A stretch of 64,000 nt of DNA from Patescibacteria group bacterium (GTDB lineage Bacteria > Patescibacteriota > Microgenomatia > UBA8517). Both the position numbers and the translations under genes were made by a program. Each line of letters opens with the position of its first letter. Position 1 is the first letter of the stretch. The notes under the pieces are model-generated. The model was given only the letters and a program-made list of their open reading frames with translations. It made no database searches and was not told the DNA's origin. Shown piece by piece: positions 13,324 through 47,636 of the stretch. The DNA lies in assembly GCA_022868165.1 (NCBI GenBank), contig JALHYA010000001.1, forward strand, positions 12,937 through 76,936, in the 5' to 3' direction.

Positions 13324-13848
13324 TTAAATTGTATAAGCTAAAGGAAGAGAATCTATCTTCCGCATAAAATACTTAACCTTCCATGCCCATGTAGTGCTCG
13401 GAGGAGCGTAACGTCTGGCGATTTGGTCTATAGAAACGGCACCTTTATCCAAATAGTTTTGTCTAAGGGTTTTGGAAACAACCTCAATAGAGGCGTTCCA
13501 AGAAGGAAAGCTGTAGTCTCCGTTTACCCATCCGTACGCATTGTAAGAGTTATACGGAATCTGTTTTCCGAAAGTGGATTCTACACCTGTGATTGAGGCA
13601 ACAAGTCTCCAATCAAGACCGTTTTTGTCGGCCTCGGCTATAAACTTTCCGGCATATGGAGCCAAGGGAGAATTATATTTCTCCAAAAATGCCTTAAGTT
13701 GAGAAACCCTAAGGTCGCCTGTTTCGCCTACAACAGACGTTCTTAATTGAGCGGATTCGTCGGCCACGCGGGAATCGGCCGATATAACTCCGGCCGGTAA
13801 AAACGCCATAGCGGAGGCGATGAATAAAGCTAAGATTAAATTTTTCAT
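13324..13848 (-). CDS. secreted lysozyme-like / SLT-like protein (paralog 1)
   Basis: Signal peptide, ITGVESTFG (ES-x-F SLT-like catalytic motif), and a paralog at 14783-15406. Family assignment is tentative. Confidence 0.45.
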   Translation of the reverse strand: MKNLILALFIASAMAFLPAGVISADSRVADESAQLRTSVVGETGDLRVSQLKAFLEKYNSPLAPYAGKFIAEADKNGLDWRLVASITGVESTFGKQIPYNSYNAYGWVNGDYSFPSWNASIEVVSKTLRQNYLDKGAVSIDQIARRYAPPSTTWAWKVKYFMRKIDSLPLAYTI

Positions 13849-14782: not shown

Positions 14783-15406
14783 TTATTGCATTTCGGACAT
14801 GAAAGTATTTACGCCGTGTGCCCAGGAGCCGTTTGAGGAAGGAGTATATTTGGACATGATTTGGTCCGGAGTAGTAAGCCCCTCGTCTATGTAATTTTCC
14901 TTAAGACCCTGGGAGACTGTTTCAATTCCCTCTTCGTAGGATGAAAAGCCCAAATTTGATTCGCTGTGAATTCCCCAACCCCAGCAATTATGGGAGCCGG
15001 GAGGAATAATTCTGCAAAGATTGGATTCCTGTTGGGCGATGGCCGTAATGAGCCTGAAATCAAGAGAATATTTATCCGCAGTATCCACGATATGCATGGC
15101 GTAAAGAACGAGTGGTGAGCCGTAGGAAGCCAAATATTGGCTTATTATTTCGGGTCTGGCGTCGGCGGCTTTAGCATTGCCTGCAACGGTGGGGATTGTG
15201 TTGGGCAAAGAAGCATAAACCCGCACTCCGGGTTTAGGCTCCACTATAAGATTGACTGAAGTTGGGGCCATCTTGGCCTGTACGTCCTTATTTTTGGCCA
15301 AAGAAACCAACGAAAACAAACTTGTAAGTAGTGCTATAGGGGTTATCGTAAAGAAAAGACTTACAAGAATTAAGTTTTTCCAGAAAGAAAAGTTGTCTTC
15401 CGCCAT
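14783..15406 (-). CDS. secreted lysozyme-like / SLT-like protein (paralog 2)
   Basis: AIAQQESNLC...NCWGWG aligns with paralog 1. Start trimmed to Met62 (MAEDNFSFWKNLIL signal). Confidence 0.45.
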   Translation of the reverse strand: MAEDNFSFWKNLILVSLFFTITPIALLTSLFSLVSLAKNKDVQAKMAPTSVNLIVEPKPGVRVYASLPNTIPTVAGNAKAADARPEIISQYLASYGSPLVLYAMHIVDTADKYSLDFRLITAIAQQESNLCRIIPPGSHNCWGWGIHSESNLGFSSYEEGIETVSQGLKENYIDEGLTTPDQIMSKYTPSSNGSWAHGVNTFMSEMQ

Positions 15407-15473
15407 ATTTCGCCTTTTGTCAGGATGCCACAAAAAGGGGTCTATAGTCAAGTTTTTGAGGCTAAAAATGGCC

Positions 15474-15518
15474 ACAAAAAAAGAGGGCACACCCTTAACT
15501 CGCGTCAGGTATGTGCCC
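15474..15518 (-). terminator. rho-independent terminator (minus strand) after gene 15552-16031
   Basis: Reverse complement: GGGCACA ... TGTGCCC stem followed by TTTTTTTGTG. Confidence 0.55.
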
Positions 15519-15551
15519 CAGCACCTTGTCATCAGATTTTCCCCAGGTTTC

Positions 15552-16031
15552 TTAGGCCTTGGTGAACACCAACAGGAGGGCGAAGACAATGACGATCACG
15601 ATAACAATCACTCTCCTCCTCTTCATATACGGAGAGAGGGGAACCCGTGCAGGCCGTATCGCTTCCCGTTCCTCCACCGTTAGATGTTTGTACTCATCCC
15701 AACCGATCATCTGCCCGGACCTGTCCCTCCTGGGTTCCCACTGCATCATTAAAAACCAACCGATGAATTCGAGGGTGAAACCCAGAAGCCAGCCGATGGC
15801 CGGATGGCGTCCTTTGCCTTTGGCGACTTTTCCACCCAGCCAAGTCCAGGCGGCCAGGTATACCGCAAAACAGCTCGCCTCCGCCAGGCTCCGCCCCAAA
15901 CATAGCCCGTGGGTCTGCCAAACAGGACCGGCTTGGCTGCAGTCTGAGTGGGCACTCGCTGACATGATCCAGAACCAGCAGGCTGTTATGTACAGGATTG
16001 CCGGTGCTGCAAGAACCCATTTCTTCTTCAT
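15552..16031 (-). CDS. high-GC membrane/lipoprotein-like protein (island gene X)
   Basis: RBS AGGAGGG 5 nt upstream of the ATG. N-terminal signal with ITAC lipobox-like segment, C-terminal IVIVIVIV TM helix. Coding GC is markedly higher than the surroundings. Confidence 0.55.
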   Translation of the reverse strand: MKKKWVLAAPAILYITACWFWIMSASAHSDCSQAGPVWQTHGLCLGRSLAEASCFAVYLAAWTWLGGKVAKGKGRHPAIGWLLGFTLEFIGWFLMMQWEPRRDRSGQMIGWDEYKHLTVEEREAIRPARVPLSPYMKRRRVIVIVIVIVFALLLVFTKA

Positions 16032-16134
16032 CACGCCCTCCTTGTGGCGAATTATTTGACCGGATTGTCAAGGTGCACAAAAATGCCCGATGTTTCGGGC
16101 AAGTAGCTATATTGTACTTCAATAGGTCAATTTT

Positions 16135-16190
16135 CACAAAAAAAGAGGGCACTCACCTTTGATGCTTTCGCTTCGCAGGTTTGTGCCCTC
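16135..16190 (-). terminator. rho-independent terminator (minus strand) after gene 16253-16678
   Basis: Reverse complement: GAGGGCAC ... GTGCCCTC stem followed by TTTTTTTGTG. Confidence 0.55.
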
Positions 16191-16252
16191 ATGCACCCTA
16201 TCGGAAGTTTAACCACCCGCACCCTTGCTGGACACCGCATTGAACTGGCGAT

Positions 16253-16678
16253 TCAATGCGCCTCAGCGCTCCACTCCCATTCTCCCAGTTCACATCTTGT
16301 TGTCTGTCCGAACGATAACTCCGGCCTCAGGTCAATCGTTCCACTCGCCTCCGTCGGCGACGTAAACCGACCCTCCGCCTCCCCGATGCTTGACGAGGAG
16401 ACATTAATGCTGCCATCACGAATCGGAAACGGCATTCCGGATGCCTGGCTGGCCCATGACCCGGCTGAAAACCCGTCGCATCGTACGTCCGTAAGGCTGA
16501 AACCCACAAACGTGATGGCCGCTCCGTCGTCCGAAACGGTAAAGGTGAACGTGCCGCTGCTGGCCCCTCCACTGATATCGATAGGACCGCTGAATGTGCT
16601 CCCAGGCTCAGGCATTGAAGTCCCGCCGCATGCAACCAAAAGCACTGCGAGTAGCACGAGATACATATGCCGTTTCAT
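16253..16678 (-). CDS. high-GC lipoprotein (island gene Y)
   Basis: RBS AGGAGGG then ATG. MKRHMYLVLLAVLLVAC with lipobox LVAC. Ser/Gly/Thr-rich mature part. Start taken at Met17 of the track ORF. Confidence 0.55.
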   Translation of the reverse strand: MKRHMYLVLLAVLLVACGGTSMPEPGSTFSGPIDISGGASSGTFTFTVSDDGAAITFVGFSLTDVRCDGFSAGSWASQASGMPFPIRDGSINVSSSSIGEAEGRFTSPTEASGTIDLRPELSFGQTTRCELGEWEWSAEAH

Positions 16679-16767
16679 CTCGCCCTCCTTGTGGCGAATG
16701 TGTGACCGGATTGTCAAGGTGCACAAAAAACCCGCTTATACGGGCAGTTCCTATATTATACTCTTAG

Positions 16768-16840
16768 TGAGCCGCCCGAGACTCGAACTCGGAACCGTTA
16801 CCTTAAGAGGGTACTGCTCTACCGATTGAGCTAGCGGCCC
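16768..16840 (-). tRNA. tRNA-Lys (anticodon CTT)
   Basis: Acceptor GGGCCGC/GCGGCTC, D-arm TAGCTCAATCGGTAGAGCA, anticodon loop CTCTTAA, T-arm CCGAGTTCGAGTCTCGG. Confidence 0.8.
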
Positions 16841-16852
16841 AAACGCACAAAT

Positions 16853-18277
16853 TCAGGCTATTTTACCATTTCGGGGAATCGAAAGCGAAATAATTTTTCT
16901 CAACTCGTCGATAATAATCCAAAAATCGGGCTTCTCGAGCGTTATCATCTGGAATTGAACGGCGTTGGTAAACACTTTGGAATCTTTTGCGAGTCTAAGA
17001 GAACCTACAAAAAAGCCCGAATTTTTGGGCGATGTCCCCCTAAAGAAAAGTATCCCTGTTCTTCTTGGCTCGATCTCGCCGAAAATCGGAATTTGCAAAT
17101 CTATGTTTTTGTTATCCAGCATTAGAGAAAGTTCTCCGTTTTTCCAAATCGATTGTCCCGTATTTTTGGCCAGAGCAATACCCCAAAACGTTTGATTGGA
17201 ACCAAGAAACGGCGGAATAAATAAGGCCATTATCTCCCCCGAGGTTTCCTGTTGGGGTTTCCCCGATTGTTTCGTCAGCGACGACACATCGTCGTAGAAT
17301 TTATAAAATTTTCCTGCGCTTTGTTTCCAACTGAATTGGGCAAAAAGCCCGTCGGTATAGGAAAGAATAAAAGGAGTTACTGCTACCACTCTTTTATCGT
17401 TCCATACGCTTTCGAAAGCAAATTTGAATTTGTCTCCCAAAGAGTCAGGATTTAAAAAGGCCCTTGTTTTCGGGTCGTCCGTTGTATGTGCCCAACCGGT
17501 TTCGGTGATAAAAACCGGCAGCTCTTTTTTAACCCCCAGAGAAGATAAAAGACTCAATTCCCAAACATAAGTTCTTACGGAACCTCGGCCGGTATCCGTT
17601 TCCGAACCGGTAAAATTGGGATTCGGATATGAGTGGGAAGACCATCCGTCAATGTATTTCAGGGCATCCGGAACGCTACTCACCATATTGGTCAAAAAAG
17701 TGGCCTCGTCCGTTGTATCTTTGGAGTTGGGAGCAGAAGCATCGAAACCCGCAGGCAGGACAAAATAATCAGGATTGTCGGCTTTAAGCTTTGAAGAAAA
17801 TGCCAAAAGATACTCTCCGTATTCTTTGGGGTTAACGAAACCTCCCCACTCCTTGGCGTGGTTGGGCTCGTTTCCGATTATGATATAGCGGTTTTTTATT
17901 ACCCAATTGAGACCGTCAAAAAAAGATATCCAGCCGTCTATTTCATCGGTAGAGGGTTTTTCCCAAGTCGAACCGTCTCCTACACCTTGTGTTGCTATTC
18001 GCACGATAGGAATAAGGTGGGCTCTTCTGGCCTGGTCGAATACCTTCTGCCAAGTGTTTATATCTCTTTGATTCTTTTGAATGACTAAAGTGATGTAGCC
18101 CCAATCCCCCCCGGTGGAATTTACCAAATGAGCAGCATCCTGCAAATCGGAAGAGTTTTCTATATGTATCCCGAATTTGTTATTGGGAACGCTTGTAGGG
18201 TCGTAGATTGCTAATGTTGTTGATGGTATTAGAACAAGAAGAGCCAAAGCAATGAAGATGCAAAAGATTTTTTTCAT
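16853..18277 (-). CDS. secreted glycoside hydrolase, GH5-like
   Basis: IIGNEPN (catalytic acid NEP) and ITETGW (nucleophile TE) motifs. Signal peptide MKKIFCIFIALALLVL. Start at Met13 of the track ORF, 7 nt after the tRNA-Arg 3' end. Confidence 0.6.
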   Translation of the reverse strand: MKKIFCIFIALALLVLIPSTTLAIYDPTSVPNNKFGIHIENSSDLQDAAHLVNSTGGDWGYITLVIQKNQRDINTWQKVFDQARRAHLIPIVRIATQGVGDGSTWEKPSTDEIDGWISFFDGLNWVIKNRYIIIGNEPNHAKEWGGFVNPKEYGEYLLAFSSKLKADNPDYFVLPAGFDASAPNSKDTTDEATFLTNMVSSVPDALKYIDGWSSHSYPNPNFTGSETDTGRGSVRTYVWELSLLSSLGVKKELPVFITETGWAHTTDDPKTRAFLNPDSLGDKFKFAFESVWNDKRVVAVTPFILSYTDGLFAQFSWKQSAGKFYKFYDDVSSLTKQSGKPQQETSGEIMALFIPPFLGSNQTFWGIALAKNTGQSIWKNGELSLMLDNKNIDLQIPIFGEIEPRRTGILFFRGTSPKNSGFFVGSLRLAKDSKVFTNAVQFQMITLEKPDFWIIIDELRKIISLSIPRNGKIA

Positions 18278-26838: not shown

Positions 26839-27279
26839 CTATTTAATAATCCAGTAGATTAAAGAGCTGAAAAAGGACAAAACAAAGGAAAAGGCTACGA
26901 AAGCCAGAATTCCCGTAAAGGAGACTGCAGGAATATCGAACCATTTCGTAGTAAATCCAACAAAGCTGAAACTGAGAATTGTAAATCCCGGAACGATTAA
27001 AGTAACAATATAAAGAGTAATGGCCGAGGAGACCCACCTAAAAAGCCCGAACGTAAGAAGATTTATAGGCAGAAGTAAAATGCCGATAACGGGTTTGGCC
27101 AAGAGCGAAACAATAGTTAATCCCACACCGGCCAAAAACAAGTCTTCCCAGCCTTTGGCAAAAATCATCCCCTGCGCAATGCGCGAAACAACGAAAAGGG
27201 AAAATGTATCTATGACATAGTGCCGGATTATTCTCTTCAAGCTATTTTTAAGTATCGCCCGCAAAGTATGGCGTGTCAA
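26839..27279 (-). CDS. DUF360 / phage-holin-family-4-like membrane protein (paralog 2)
   Basis: 146 aa, multi-TM, VPGF/GF motifs similar to the 8458-8805 gene. Confidence 0.5.
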   Translation of the reverse strand: MTRHTLRAILKNSLKRIIRHYVIDTFSLFVVSRIAQGMIFAKGWEDLFLAGVGLTIVSLLAKPVIGILLLPINLLTFGLFRWVSSAITLYIVTLIVPGFTILSFSFVGFTTKWFDIPAVSFTGILAFVAFSFVLSFFSSLIYWIIK

Positions 27280-41018: not shown

Positions 41019-43289
41019 TTATTTTGCCGAAACCAAATCTTTCTCTGCGGATGCAATGACCCCTCGAACTCTATTTATAGCATCCGGATTAACCGATATG
41101 CTAGTAATTCCCCAAGAAACGAGCTTATGTACCAAGTCGTCGTAAATCGAAGGGGCCTGTCCGCAAATTGAGGAAGTAACACCGTATTTGTTGCATCGCT
41201 TTATCACCCGACGCAGTGCCCACAAAACAGCGGGACTTCTTTCGTCGAATGCTTTGGCAACCTCGGAATTGTCACGGTCGGTACCCTGAATAAGCATGGT
41301 TAGGTCATTGGAACCGATAGACACGCCGTCTATTCCGACTTTAATAAAATCCTCCAGTAAAATTACATTTACAGGGAGTTCAACCATCATCAAAAACTTG
41401 AAGGTCGGACTTTCAAAAAGACCTTCTGAGGATACGATTCTTCTTACCTTGGCAAGCTCGTCTGGAGACCGCACAAAGGGTACCATGAGCCAGAGATTTT
41501 TGTACTTTTCTCTGACCTTTTTGATGGCCGACAACTCCAGCGAGAATACATCGGGATTGGCAACATAGCGAAAAGCCCCCCTGAGGCCTAAAAGAGGATT
41601 CGGTTCTTCGGGTTCCCAGTATTTTCCCCCGGGCAGGGCCCTGTACTCGTTGGTTTTAAAATCCGTTGCCCTATAAATTACGGGTCGGGGGTCGAAAGCC
41701 TGGGCAAAAATTTCCAAACCCTTGGATAATTTCTCAATAAATTTCCCTTGCTCTTTCCTTTTTATAGCTTCTTTAGGATGAATCCCTATGTTGGCTATCA
41801 TAAACTCTGCACGCAAAAGTCCCACCCCGTCAACATTCGTCTCAGCGACTTCTCTTACCCTTTCCGGCTCTCCCAAATTTACATAAAGCTTTGTAGCGGT
41901 TTTTGTAGAAACAAGTTTTTCCGTCTTGACAGGCATTTTCGCAGCCGTCACTTTTCCACCCAAGTAAATTTCACCTTTTGCGCCGTCGACCGTAACAATA
42001 GCACCATCTTTCAAAACTTTTGTGGCTTCTTTTGTACCAACGACGCAAGGCACTCCAAGTTCTCGCGAAACGATTGCGGCGTGAGAAGTTTCGCCGCCCT
42101 GATCGGTAATTATTGCGATTGCCTTCTTCATCGCGGGAACGAAGTCGGGAGAGGTCATCGGCGCAACCAAAACGTCTCCCTTTTCAACCTTTCCGACTTC
42201 TTTGGCGCTGGTTAGAATTTTCACCGGTCCGATGCCAATTCCCGGAGACGCGGCGCTACCGGACAATATCGGCGTAGCTGCAATAGCTAAGTTTTCTTCT
42301 CCCTTCGTTTCCTTTACTTTTACTTTTTGGATTGTAGTAACTGGTCGGGTCTGGACAATGAAAATTTTGCCTTTCTCTTTGGCCCATTCGGCATCTTGCG
42401 GAAAGTAGTAATGCTTCTGAAGTCCGTCTGCAATTCTAGCGAGATGGATTATCTCCTTATCGGAAATTTTTTGAGAGCTTTTGATTTTGGCGGGGACGGG
42501 GGCTTCCTTTGTCTCTTTTCCGATTCTGGTTAGTTGTATGCTCTGGTCTGCAATTACCTTTGAGAGTAAATAAAAAGTGTCTTTTTGCACAACATAATGG
42601 TCCGGAACAACAGAGCCTTGAACTATCATTTCTCCCAACCCCCAAACCGCCTCAATAATAATTTTGTCTTTCTCGTTATTTACCGGGTCTATGGAAAACA
42701 TAACACCGGAAACTTCCGATTGAACCATTTTTTGAACAATCACGGATATTTTTACTTTTTCGTGCGGAATTTTATTTTCGACTCTATAGAAAATCGAGCG
42801 GGGCATAAACAAAGAAGCCCAGCATTCCCTTACGGCATTTAGTAAATTGGCGTCTCCTTTTACGTTTAGCAAGGTTACTTGCTGTCCGGCAAAAGACGTA
42901 TCTCCCATATCCTCGGCCGTAGCGGAAGAGCGAACGGCAACGAGAGCACTTTTAAAAAGTCCCGAAAGTTTTTTGTAAGAATAAATTATTTCTCGGGCAA
43001 GTTCTTCGGGAAGATTTCCGGCCACAATTCTTTTTCTGATTGCCTTGGAAACCGAATCAAGTTGTACGGGGTCGTTTACATCAACGACCTTCAATTGGTC
43101 GTTTATTTGCTTCGTAAGCTGATTCTCTTTTAAAAACAAATCGTAGCCCGCGACTGTAATGGCAAAGCCTGGAGGAACGGGGATGCCTATTTTTATCATC
43201 TCTCCCAAATTGGCTCCTTTTCCGCCGACTTTTGGAGAATCGTCTTTATCTATATCCTTGAAGAAAATTGTATATTTCAGGGCAGACAT
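41019..43289 (-). CDS. ppsA: phosphoenolpyruvate synthase / PEP-utilising dikinase
   Basis: N-terminal ATP-grasp (VGGKGANLGEM), phosphohistidine domain (GGETSHAAIVSRELGVPCVVG), C-terminal PEP-utilising domain. Confidence 0.75.
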   Translation of the reverse strand: MSALKYTIFFKDIDKDDSPKVGGKGANLGEMIKIGIPVPPGFAITVAGYDLFLKENQLTKQINDQLKVVDVNDPVQLDSVSKAIRKRIVAGNLPEELAREIIYSYKKLSGLFKSALVAVRSSATAEDMGDTSFAGQQVTLLNVKGDANLLNAVRECWASLFMPRSIFYRVENKIPHEKVKISVIVQKMVQSEVSGVMFSIDPVNNEKDKIIIEAVWGLGEMIVQGSVVPDHYVVQKDTFYLLSKVIADQSIQLTRIGKETKEAPVPAKIKSSQKISDKEIIHLARIADGLQKHYYFPQDAEWAKEKGKIFIVQTRPVTTIQKVKVKETKGEENLAIAATPILSGSAASPGIGIGPVKILTSAKEVGKVEKGDVLVAPMTSPDFVPAMKKAIAIITDQGGETSHAAIVSRELGVPCVVGTKEATKVLKDGAIVTVDGAKGEIYLGGKVTAAKMPVKTEKLVSTKTATKLYVNLGEPERVREVAETNVDGVGLLRAEFMIANIGIHPKEAIKRKEQGKFIEKLSKGLEIFAQAFDPRPVIYRATDFKTNEYRALPGGKYWEPEEPNPLLGLRGAFRYVANPDVFSLELSAIKKVREKYKNLWLMVPFVRSPDELAKVRRIVSSEGLFESPTFKFLMMVELPVNVILLEDFIKVGIDGVSIGSNDLTMLIQGTDRDNSEVAKAFDERSPAVLWALRRVIKRCNKYGVTSSICGQAPSIYDDLVHKLVSWGITSISVNPDAINRVRGVIASAEKDLVSAK

Positions 43290-47549: not shown

Positions 47550-47636
47550 ATGCTGACGCCAGGATTTGAACCTGGAACCTTCCGGGTGCGCACCGAGCGA
47601 GTTACCCGAACGCTCTTCCAATTGAGCTACGTCAGC
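47550..47636 (-). tRNA. atypical 87-nt tRNA-like gene (anticodon arm non-canonical; identity unresolved)
   Basis: Canonical acceptor GCTGACG/CGTCAGC, D-arm TAGCTCAATTGGAAGAGC and T-arm CCAGGTTCAAATCCTGG. The 36 nt between is GTTCGGGTAACTCGCTCGGTGCGCACCCGGAAGGTT, which has no standard 5-bp/7-nt anticodon arm; best alternative folds are given in the corresponding finding. TTGACA-17-TATATT promoter upstream. Confidence 0.4.

Follow-up and report, generated by a model that had tools for sequence, protein, structure and literature searches.

Why should two unrelated genes that lie side by side start behind almost the same stretch of non-coding DNA? The question is raised by a window of 64,000 nucleotides from a Patescibacteria group bacterium (contig JALHYA010000001.1, positions 12,937 to 76,936), in which two envelope genes on the minus strand, X (15552..16031) and Y (16253..16678), form an island with a GC content of ~0.55 between flanks of 0.43-0.44. 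Each gene is preceded by a leader of ~95 bp, and the two leaders are spaced 646 bp apart. The leader is probably one part of a portable expression module with conserved flanks that also act as homology arms when cassettes are exchanged, and the pair of leaders in the window is, as judged from its alleles, the footprint of a recombinational cassette exchange in which one crossover fell inside the core of the leader.

On the minus strand, the sequences upstream of X (16032-16130) and Y (16679-16767) are identical in 77 of 89 aligned columns. An exact 27-nt block, TTTTTGTGCACCTTGACAATCCGGTCA, is common to both (16057-16083 and 16703-16729), as is an exact 18-nt block, TTCGCCACAAGGAGGGCG, at the Shine-Dalgarno (SD) sequence (16034-16051 and 16681-16698; 0.05 chance matches expected). 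An nhmmer profile made from eleven leaders detects only these two copies in the window, with E = 1.6e-29 for leader-X and E = 1.1e-23 for leader-Y. The start codons, in corrected coordinates, are at 16031-16029 for X and 16678-16676 for Y. The sequence-only reading that is followed up here had described a near base-for-base alignment of the two upstream stretches, a common order of AGTA(C/T)AATATAG box, hairpin with T-run, dyad box and SD-ATG, and coding sequences that part immediately past ATGAA; all of these are found at both copies. Its placement of leader-X after the terminator of Y and of leader-Y directly after tRNA-Lys is equally correct. Leader-Y follows, after a gap of 3 nt, the resident tRNA-Lys(ctt) (16767..16840, minus strand; ARAGORN; Rfam tRNA, 61.9 bits), and the junction is identical in the syntenic metagenome contig L024. 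The proposed dyad TTGAC-N6-GTCAA has to be amended in part: the box is present, but in the Y copy and the majority of relatives its right half is GTCAC instead of GTCAA. No open or conserved reading frame crosses the leaders on either strand, and a leader peptide or an antisense open reading frame (ORF) was rejected on this ground.

The leader is retained far outside the window. It lies upstream of X homologues with 51-58% amino-acid identity in a Woesebacteria genome (L007), in an unclassified contig resembling the candidate phyla radiation (CPR-like; L010), in metagenome contigs (L018, L024 and L026) and, in degraded form, in Anaerolineales/Chloroflexota metagenome-assembled genomes (MAGs; L008, L009 and L019). 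It is also found in front of other genes. A full promoter-leader and the same terminator surround a third gene, Z, in L013; in L014 they surround Y, which is followed by X, and Y is flanked in the same way in L002 and L025. The full module precedes a fourth gene, V, in L022, where a shortened second leader and an X variant follow. Leader and terminator are thus shared around X, Y and Z, and the leader is shared in front of V. The same two-leader Y-X array recurs in separate JGI, ENA and Logan assemblies; the Logan contig with this arrangement, L001, is possibly not independent of the reads of the MAG. The idea that a reusable expression cassette was fused to different surface-protein genes, for which conservation in relatives was decisive, is therefore borne out: in Patescibacteria and Chloroflexota, at least four envelope genes that are unrelated to one another sit between a conserved, predicted promoter plus 5' leader and the terminator that goes with it. 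Between X of the window and X of L007, the upstream sequence is 83% identical and the 3' untranslated region (UTR) 90%, against 68% for the coding sequence (CDS) and 53% for third codon positions; overall, identity is 83-90% for the flanks and 65-68% for the coding sequence. Since the flanks are conserved above the coding level and hold no conserved frame, these non-coding sequences must be either constrained or homogenised.

How the second leader reached the window can be read from two relatives. L024 is syntenic with the window, with tRNA-Gly, tRNA-Arg, a 474-aa ORF and tRNA-Lys on one side and a 207-aa ORF, a methyltransferase and a metallo-beta-lactamase (MBL)-fold protein beyond, and it has a single cassette at the site (tRNA-Lys, leader, X). 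The left flank of the window down to 16730, including the hairpin half of leader-Y, matches L024 best (94.3%). The next 864 bp (16703-15840), which comprise the SD half of leader-Y, Y, its terminator, the promoter, leader-X and the first ~190 nt of X, match L014 best (92.3%), and from ~15830 rightward the best match is again L024 (93.7%). Leader-Y is therefore chimeric, with a hairpin half of the resident L024 type and an SD half of the L014 type. The left crossover interval (16704..16729, minus strand) falls within the part of the leader core that is exactly shared: down to 16721 the window follows L024 (147/150 over 16870-16721), and from 16720 to 16691 it agrees with L014 at 30/30 positions versus 27/30 for L024, the ACAC versus CAATA allele being diagnostic. 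The right crossover interval (15831..15839, minus strand) lies inside X, just upstream of a conserved AKGKGRHPAIGW-coding stretch. Among 146 informative sites, 73/75 before this breakpoint are L014-like and 58/71 after it are L024-like (Fisher p = 2.8e-25; 3.8e-23 after Bonferroni correction). X of the window is accordingly a mosaic allele, whose N-terminal part is of the L014/L002 type and whose C-terminal part is of the L024 type. In its family the N-terminus occurs as two alleles, MKKKW... and MKEKLKENW..., and so does the C-terminus, as ...VIVIVIVFALLLVFTKA and ...LMVLQILSNLGKN; all four combinations are found (window, L024, L002 and L025), and the C-terminal allele goes with the chromosomal site, tRNA-Lys or tRNA-Glu/GreA. 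In the proposed course of events, crossovers in the leader core and in mid-X would have swapped a segment at the tRNA-Lys locus between an L024-type single cassette and an L014-type array of leader, Y, terminator, promoter-leader and X, which would leave the window with two leaders at their present spacing.

The module consists of a -35 element, a -10 box AGTAnAAT, a 5' hairpin with a U-run, a TGACAATCCGGTCA box (GTGCACCTTGACAATCC.GTCA), CGCCACAAGGAGGGCGAGATG and the shared 3' terminator. In the window, all elements are on the minus strand. The promoter and leader of X (16032..16139; promoter and terminator scans, hairpin fold and nhmmer) comprise a predicted -35 TTGTGA (16134-16139), a predicted -10 TACAAT at a distance of 17 nt (16111-16116), a predicted transcription start near 16104, a hairpin called terminator-like by the scan (16084-16101, U-run 16079-16083) and the dyad TTGACAATCCGGTCAA (16056-16071). 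Leader-Y (16679..16766) comprises the -10 box GAGTATAAT (TATAAT at 16755-16760), a hairpin with a U-run (16724-16745, the stem being called terminator-like at 16745-16730), the core GTGCACCTTGACAATCCGGTCA (16703-16724) and the SD block, and the ATG follows at 16676-16678. The geometry predicted for window X (TTGTGA-17-TACAAT), L008 (TTGGAA-17-TATGAT) and L010 (TTGAGA-17-TATAAT) is of the sigma-70 type. The copies of Y and L024 carry GAGTATAAT without a -35, the tRNA 3' end being in its place; because the host's own tRNA promoters are likewise -10-dominated gTATAAT boxes without a clear -35, these copies are still plausible promoters, and the -10 box presumably acts as an active one. TTGACA was also considered as a -35 and rejected: no -10 lies at 16-18 nt, and its spacing to the SD and ATG differs widely among the second leader of L022, the window copies and the X leader of L002 (L002X).

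The predicted start lies ~7 nt past the -10, so that the transcript would begin 3-4 nt ahead of the hairpin. The 5' hairpin folds with -11.9 kcal/mol (z = -4.7) in leader-X and -8.9 kcal/mol (z = -2.8) in leader-Y; with 5-6 T downstream, both hairpins have the sequence features of intrinsic terminators and may terminate transcription. The remaining ~50 nt of the leader are no more structured than shuffled sequences (z = +1.2 and -0.4), and a weak CGCC/GGCG hairpin has most of AAGGAGG, 5 nt from the ATG, in its loop. The leader thus fits a strong, portable expression module as far as its sequence goes. The hairpin of leader-Y occupies the spot expected for the terminator of tRNA-Lys, and the 5' hairpin could serve as an mRNA stabiliser, an insulator against upstream read-through, or an attenuator or leaky terminator. 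On the 3' side, the UTR of Y with the shared terminator (GAGGGCACAAACCTG...GGTGAGTGCCCTC plus T-run; 16135..16252) folds with -47.6 kcal/mol (z = -3.4) and aligns with the terminators of X and Z. The corresponding region of X (TGATGACAAGGTGC-T-GGGGCACATACCTGACGCGAGTTAAGGGTGTGCCCTC plus T-run; 15475..15551) was delimited by element matches and its fold. The element conserved in relatives is TGATGACAAGGTGC-N-GGGGCACATACCTG...GGGTGTGCCCTC plus T-run, and the GC-rich L019 has a compensatory change in the stem; in X and Y the 3' elements also consist of a GC-rich stem-loop and a U-run, as in intrinsic terminators. The ~95-bp cassette would then be the 5' half of a self-contained transcription unit. 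It would run from a promoter of the sigma-70 type, dominated by its -10 (AGTAnAAT; a TTGnnA -35, where there is one, lies at 17 nt), through a hairpin with a U-run and an essentially unstructured stretch with TGAC-N6-GTCA to a strong SD (AAGGAGG, 5 nt, ATG). The equally conserved long terminator hairpin would form the 3' half. These flanks would surround different envelope genes (X, Y, Z and V) in Woesebacteria-type Patescibacteria and Chloroflexota, and, being common to the cassettes, they would also work as homology arms.

Gene content at the chromosomal sites varies. The tRNA-Lys site holds X or Y-X. A second site lies between Lon/tRNA-Glu and GreA/LysRS; in related genomes it holds X alone, Y-X, X'-Y-X or X-Y, and in one variant (L002) a deletion joins the terminator of a truncated X' straight to leader-Y. 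All cassettes are in direct orientation, each with a predicted promoter of its own, and alternative gene content is framed by conserved flanks without mobility genes, as in the minimal mobile elements of Neisseria. At its 5' edge the module often borders on the 3' end of a tRNA or on what is left of such an end. A real tRNA-Lys stands there in the window (16767-16770) and in L024; in L014 (minus strand, ~1560-1760) the last 14 nt of tRNA-Glu, CCCAGTGGGGTCAC, recur 88 nt downstream, right ahead of the cassette promoter, and ...GGGTCAC or GGCTCAC remnants stand at the same place in L007 (~2860-2890), L009 (~1215-1240) and L013. Such remnants could be the footprint of old att sites or the result of hitch-hiking of flanking sequence.

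Several other explanations of the repeated leader have to be weighed against the expression module. That the cassettes are part of an integrative element that targets tRNAs, or of an integron-like or moron-like mobile system, and were inserted site-specifically is very unlikely, although they adjoin tRNA-Lys or tRNA-3'-end remnants, have a foreign-looking GC content and are, as in a phage moron, autonomous promoter-gene-terminator units. Neither integrase, transposase nor recombinase genes are found within ~4-8 kb in the five contexts examined, where the flanking genes are housekeeping genes. Viral contigs gave 0 matches with four patterns, and X has no tblastn match in phage or plasmid records, so a phage, plasmid or moron origin was rejected. 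No GTTRRRY cores, as in integron attC sites, occur in the sequence and no integrase lies in the flanks; the leader repeat is 5' of the ORFs and holds the promoter and SD, unlike attC. The demonstrated event, moreover, used homology within X. With no integrase or transposase and no viral or plasmid copies, homologous recombination through shared flanks and conserved coding stretches best explains the exchange. DNA would presumably enter by natural transformation, by analogy with cultivated Patescibacteria in which natural competence has been shown, documented for Saccharibacteria only (PMC10633639). The view that the pair arose in place by a recent tandem duplication, or is an artefact of assembly, and has no wider meaning would agree with the finding of only two copies in the window and with the derivation of the MAG from a metagenome assembly. 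However, the hairpin alleles of the two leaders differ and each matches another relative, the two-leader array recurs across assemblies, and the leader is kept in distant genomes and before other genes, which makes this explanation hardly credible. The in-situ duplication implied by the sequence-only reading is not borne out either. Because the two leaders hold different parental alleles and L024 has one cassette, local duplication is rejected; the mosaic and its breakpoints indicate that the second copy came with an imported cassette via homologous recombination.

Two further explanations concern regulation. The leader may be a cis-regulatory RNA, in which the hairpin and U-run would act as a conditional attenuator and/or CCUUG would block translation by pairing with the SD, relieved by a factor, a small RNA (sRNA) or the 3' UTR element CAAGGUGC; this is doubtful but not negligible. 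It is in favour of such a switch that both hairpins pass the terminator scan and fold strongly, that RNAalifold pairs the U-run and CCUUG with the SD and the pre-AUG region, that CCUUG:CAAGG is pairable in 90.7% of cells, and that the leader is far more conserved than third codon positions. In addition, the 5' UTR GCACCUUG(A)CA (16066-16078) is close to the reverse complement of UG(A)CAAGGUGC (15522-15534) in the 3' UTR, past the stop codon, in the X and Z cassettes of the window, L007 and L013. The duplex energies are modestly better than those of shuffles (4/500, 20/500 and 21/500 do as well), and this complementarity could stem from pairing between the 5' and 3' UTRs, from the vestige of an SD block or from inverted repeats that belong to the module. 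However, the covariation term of RNAalifold is unfavourable (+0.68), CCUUG:CAAGG shows only one-sided wobble changes, and for none of four helices (5' hairpin, dyad hairpin, SD-loop hairpin CGCC/GGCG and CCUUG:CAAGG) does the number of pairs exceed that in shuffles (44-220/500), a covariation test that is uninformative because the leader sequences are too conserved. The anti-SD helix is absent from the minimum-free-energy (MFE) and centroid folds of both window copies, whose post-hairpin part is unstructured; it is broken in L026 (CCCUG) and missing from the second leader of L022. There is no space upstream of the hairpin for an antiterminator, the leaders have no Rfam match even at E <= 10, and leader-Y of L002 and of L025 has no hairpin at all, yet an intact Y follows. 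Neither the ribosome-binding-site (RBS)-sequestering CCUUG:CAAGG hairpin nor the riboregulatory leader suggested from the sequence is therefore supported, the 5' hairpin being the only stable structure. The TGAC-N6-GTCA dyad may alternatively be a site for a DNA-binding protein, either an operator just past the start site or the target of a site-specific recombinase. Its core (TGACAATCC.GTCA) is nearly invariant in most leaders, its outer pair is changed on both sides in L019 and L026 to CTGA...TCAG, the left crossover interval includes the box, and the Xer1 sites of the vpma/vsp loci lie in a conserved 5' UTR (PMC2268961). This explanation is nevertheless unlikely. The right half is missing in the second leader of L022, in L002X and in the X leader of L014 (L014X), and the left half is damaged in L008. 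All 6 near-matches to the dyad elsewhere in the window are inside ORFs, so that no operator regulon is visible and this candidate was rejected; no regulator or recombinase gene lies beside any of the five contexts examined. The copies are all directly oriented, with no inversion switch. The second crossover within the X CDS and the L002 deletion junction away from the dyad argue for homologous rather than site-specific exchange.

The portable expression module with flanks that double as homology arms has to be held against several observations that weigh against it. A strong terminator-like hairpin right after the promoter is odd for a purely constitutive expression module, and promoter, start site and hairpin fate are all predictions. 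Expression signals alone do not account for the very high conservation of the TGACAATCCGGTCA box. With two copies in the 64-kb window and five loci returned by a strict leader-pattern scan of JGI metagenomes, the leader is a low-copy element, not a large family. Part of the flank conservation could come from repeated gene conversion, not from functional constraint. L024 and L014 are only 92-94% identical to the window, so that the actual partners of the exchange are not among the lineages sampled, and either type may have been the donor. A stronger version of the module would make the leader/terminator pair a dedicated, selected cassette-exchange system for swapping and co-regulating surface-exposed envelope proteins, with the hairpin and TGAC-N6-GTCA as a regulatory input that travels with the cassette. 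Its users would be ultra-small epibiotic Patescibacteria and Chloroflexota, the latter possibly hosts or neighbours, and its route would be transformation followed by homologous recombination. This version is speculative and has a rather small chance of being right.

As cells that live attached to others, Patescibacteria are believed to owe their host range to their surface proteins, while changes in the surface repertoire are largely unexplained. The locus offers a concrete example of such a change at the sequence level, at tRNA-linked hotspots and apparently even across phyla. It is unusual for genes to be far less conserved than the non-coding flanks around them, and a single HMM could serve as a handle for swappable genes in metagenomes. 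The compact native set of promoter, 5' UTR and terminator may also be of use for genetic tools in these organisms.

X encodes a 159-aa membrane protein with four predicted transmembrane helices, and Y a 141-aa lipoprotein with the lipobox LVAC|GG and a predicted 8-stranded beta-barrel; the predicted fold of Y resembles Neisseria surface lipoproteins. Z (L013) is a lipoprotein of ~300 aa with a signal peptide similar to that of Y, and V (L022) is a 175-aa lipoprotein. Homologues form ~20 clusters for X and 4 for Y. Pfam, PHROGs and PADLOC give no family assignment for X, Y, Z or V, and a PDB fold search with X gives no significant match. V was considered as a spanin and rejected, the matches being confined to its signal peptide. 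In two 245-aa proteins, P0019 and P0020 (L027 and L028), the conserved last two-thirds of X are joined to an N-terminal domain of lipoprotein type; the leader is absent, and the fusions are another sign of modular shuffling in the X family.

Leader-like and repeated sequences were also seen elsewhere. In L010/L004 (3849-4000) an insertion of ~60 nt in the leader resembles a partial duplication (hairpin, TTTTTTGTAATCCGCC ... then a second GTACTTTGACAATCCAGTCAC), and the next gene (LytR_cpsA_psr) is preceded by a look-alike, GCACTTTAACAAACCCATCAAG...AAGGAGG. A common block ..CACCCAAACGA(G/A)ATTAGCCTCA(T/A)ATAT..TTTTG(G/A)AAAA precedes the promoter in the Anaerolineales L008 (~2880-2915) and in L022 (~390-430), and a related ATTTTTAGCCTCAAAAACTTGAC follows the terminator of X in the window (15440-15466) and in L024. 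At 15419-15445, 5' of the resident gene downstream of X (ATG 15406), CCCCTTTTTGTGGCATCCTGACAAAAGG resembles the leader core GGGCATTTTTGTGCACCTTGACAATCC, as it does in L024; the stretch may be a leader that has decayed, or may offer further homology for recombination. A small family of terminator-hairpin-like repeats, GCCC..TTCGGGCTTTTTT, has copies at 16999-17021 (minus-strand sense), 27029-27051 and 42944-42966, one of them inside a 486-aa ORF just upstream of tRNA-Lys. Around the methyltransferase gene, ORFs of 174 aa (13324-13848) and 207 aa (14783-15406) look like paralogues with a common C-terminal glucosaminidase-like region (weak PF01832 in the first); they are secreted-looking cell-wall proteins beside the island. 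ARAGORN reports a tRNA-Ser with the anticodon ACT, unusual for a bacterial tRNA-Ser, at 47551-47636.

No earlier description of the leader/terminator module was found in a shallow search of the literature, and the module shares features with several known systems. A phage moron is an autonomous promoter-gene-terminator unit of deviant GC content between resident genes, and each cassette is a unit of this kind. However, morons have no common leader or terminator, and the cassettes have no prophage context and no viral, phage or plasmid copies. In the vpma/vsp loci of Mycoplasma, a highly conserved 5' UTR precedes otherwise unrelated surface lipoprotein genes beside an Xer-type recombinase gene, and inversions occur (PMC2268961). 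Conserved 5' UTRs before unrelated lipoprotein genes in small-genome, host-associated bacteria are common to both systems, whereas the loci studied here show no recombinase of the Xer type nearby, no genes in inverted orientation, no reliance on a single promoter and no site-specific inversion.

The vmp genes of Borrelia hermsii are closer in layout. Conserved 5' and 3' elements, the upstream and downstream homology sequences (UHS and DHS), surround unrelated vmp genes and are thought to be crossover points (PMC6011951). The UHS is a short conserved 5' element over the start site, RBS and start codon, the position held here by the leader, and the DHS is a conserved extragenic 3' element with an inverted repeat, the position held here by the terminator. 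In both cases the elements flank unrelated surface-protein genes, and the left crossover found here lies in the leader core. Antigenic variation in B. hermsii is programmed: within the same genome, silent copies that lack a promoter are converted into the one expression site. In contrast, every full cassette here has its own promoter-like -10 and terminator, only two copies are present in 64 kb, and exchange is between genomes and loci, with no known silent archive; the shared block ends at the ATG, whereas that of B. hermsii runs 26 bp into the gene. In the minimal mobile elements of Neisseria, differing genes occupy a fixed site between conserved flanks without mobility genes, and their exchange is ascribed to transformation and homologous recombination (PMC3787668, PMC3082526). 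The tRNA-Glu/GreA site, with Y-X, X'-Y-X, X-Y or X alone, is of this type. However, the arms in Neisseria are housekeeping neighbours, whereas here they include the non-coding flanks of the cassettes and the X CDS, so that transfer of a cassette from one locus to another (tRNA-Lys versus tRNA-Glu) is possible as well. The exchange of genes for surface proteins by way of their flanks is thus of a known kind; what sets the present case apart is that the flanks appear to be complete expression signals and are better conserved than the genes between them, that two phyla are involved, and that it occurs in organisms whose surface biology is poorly understood.

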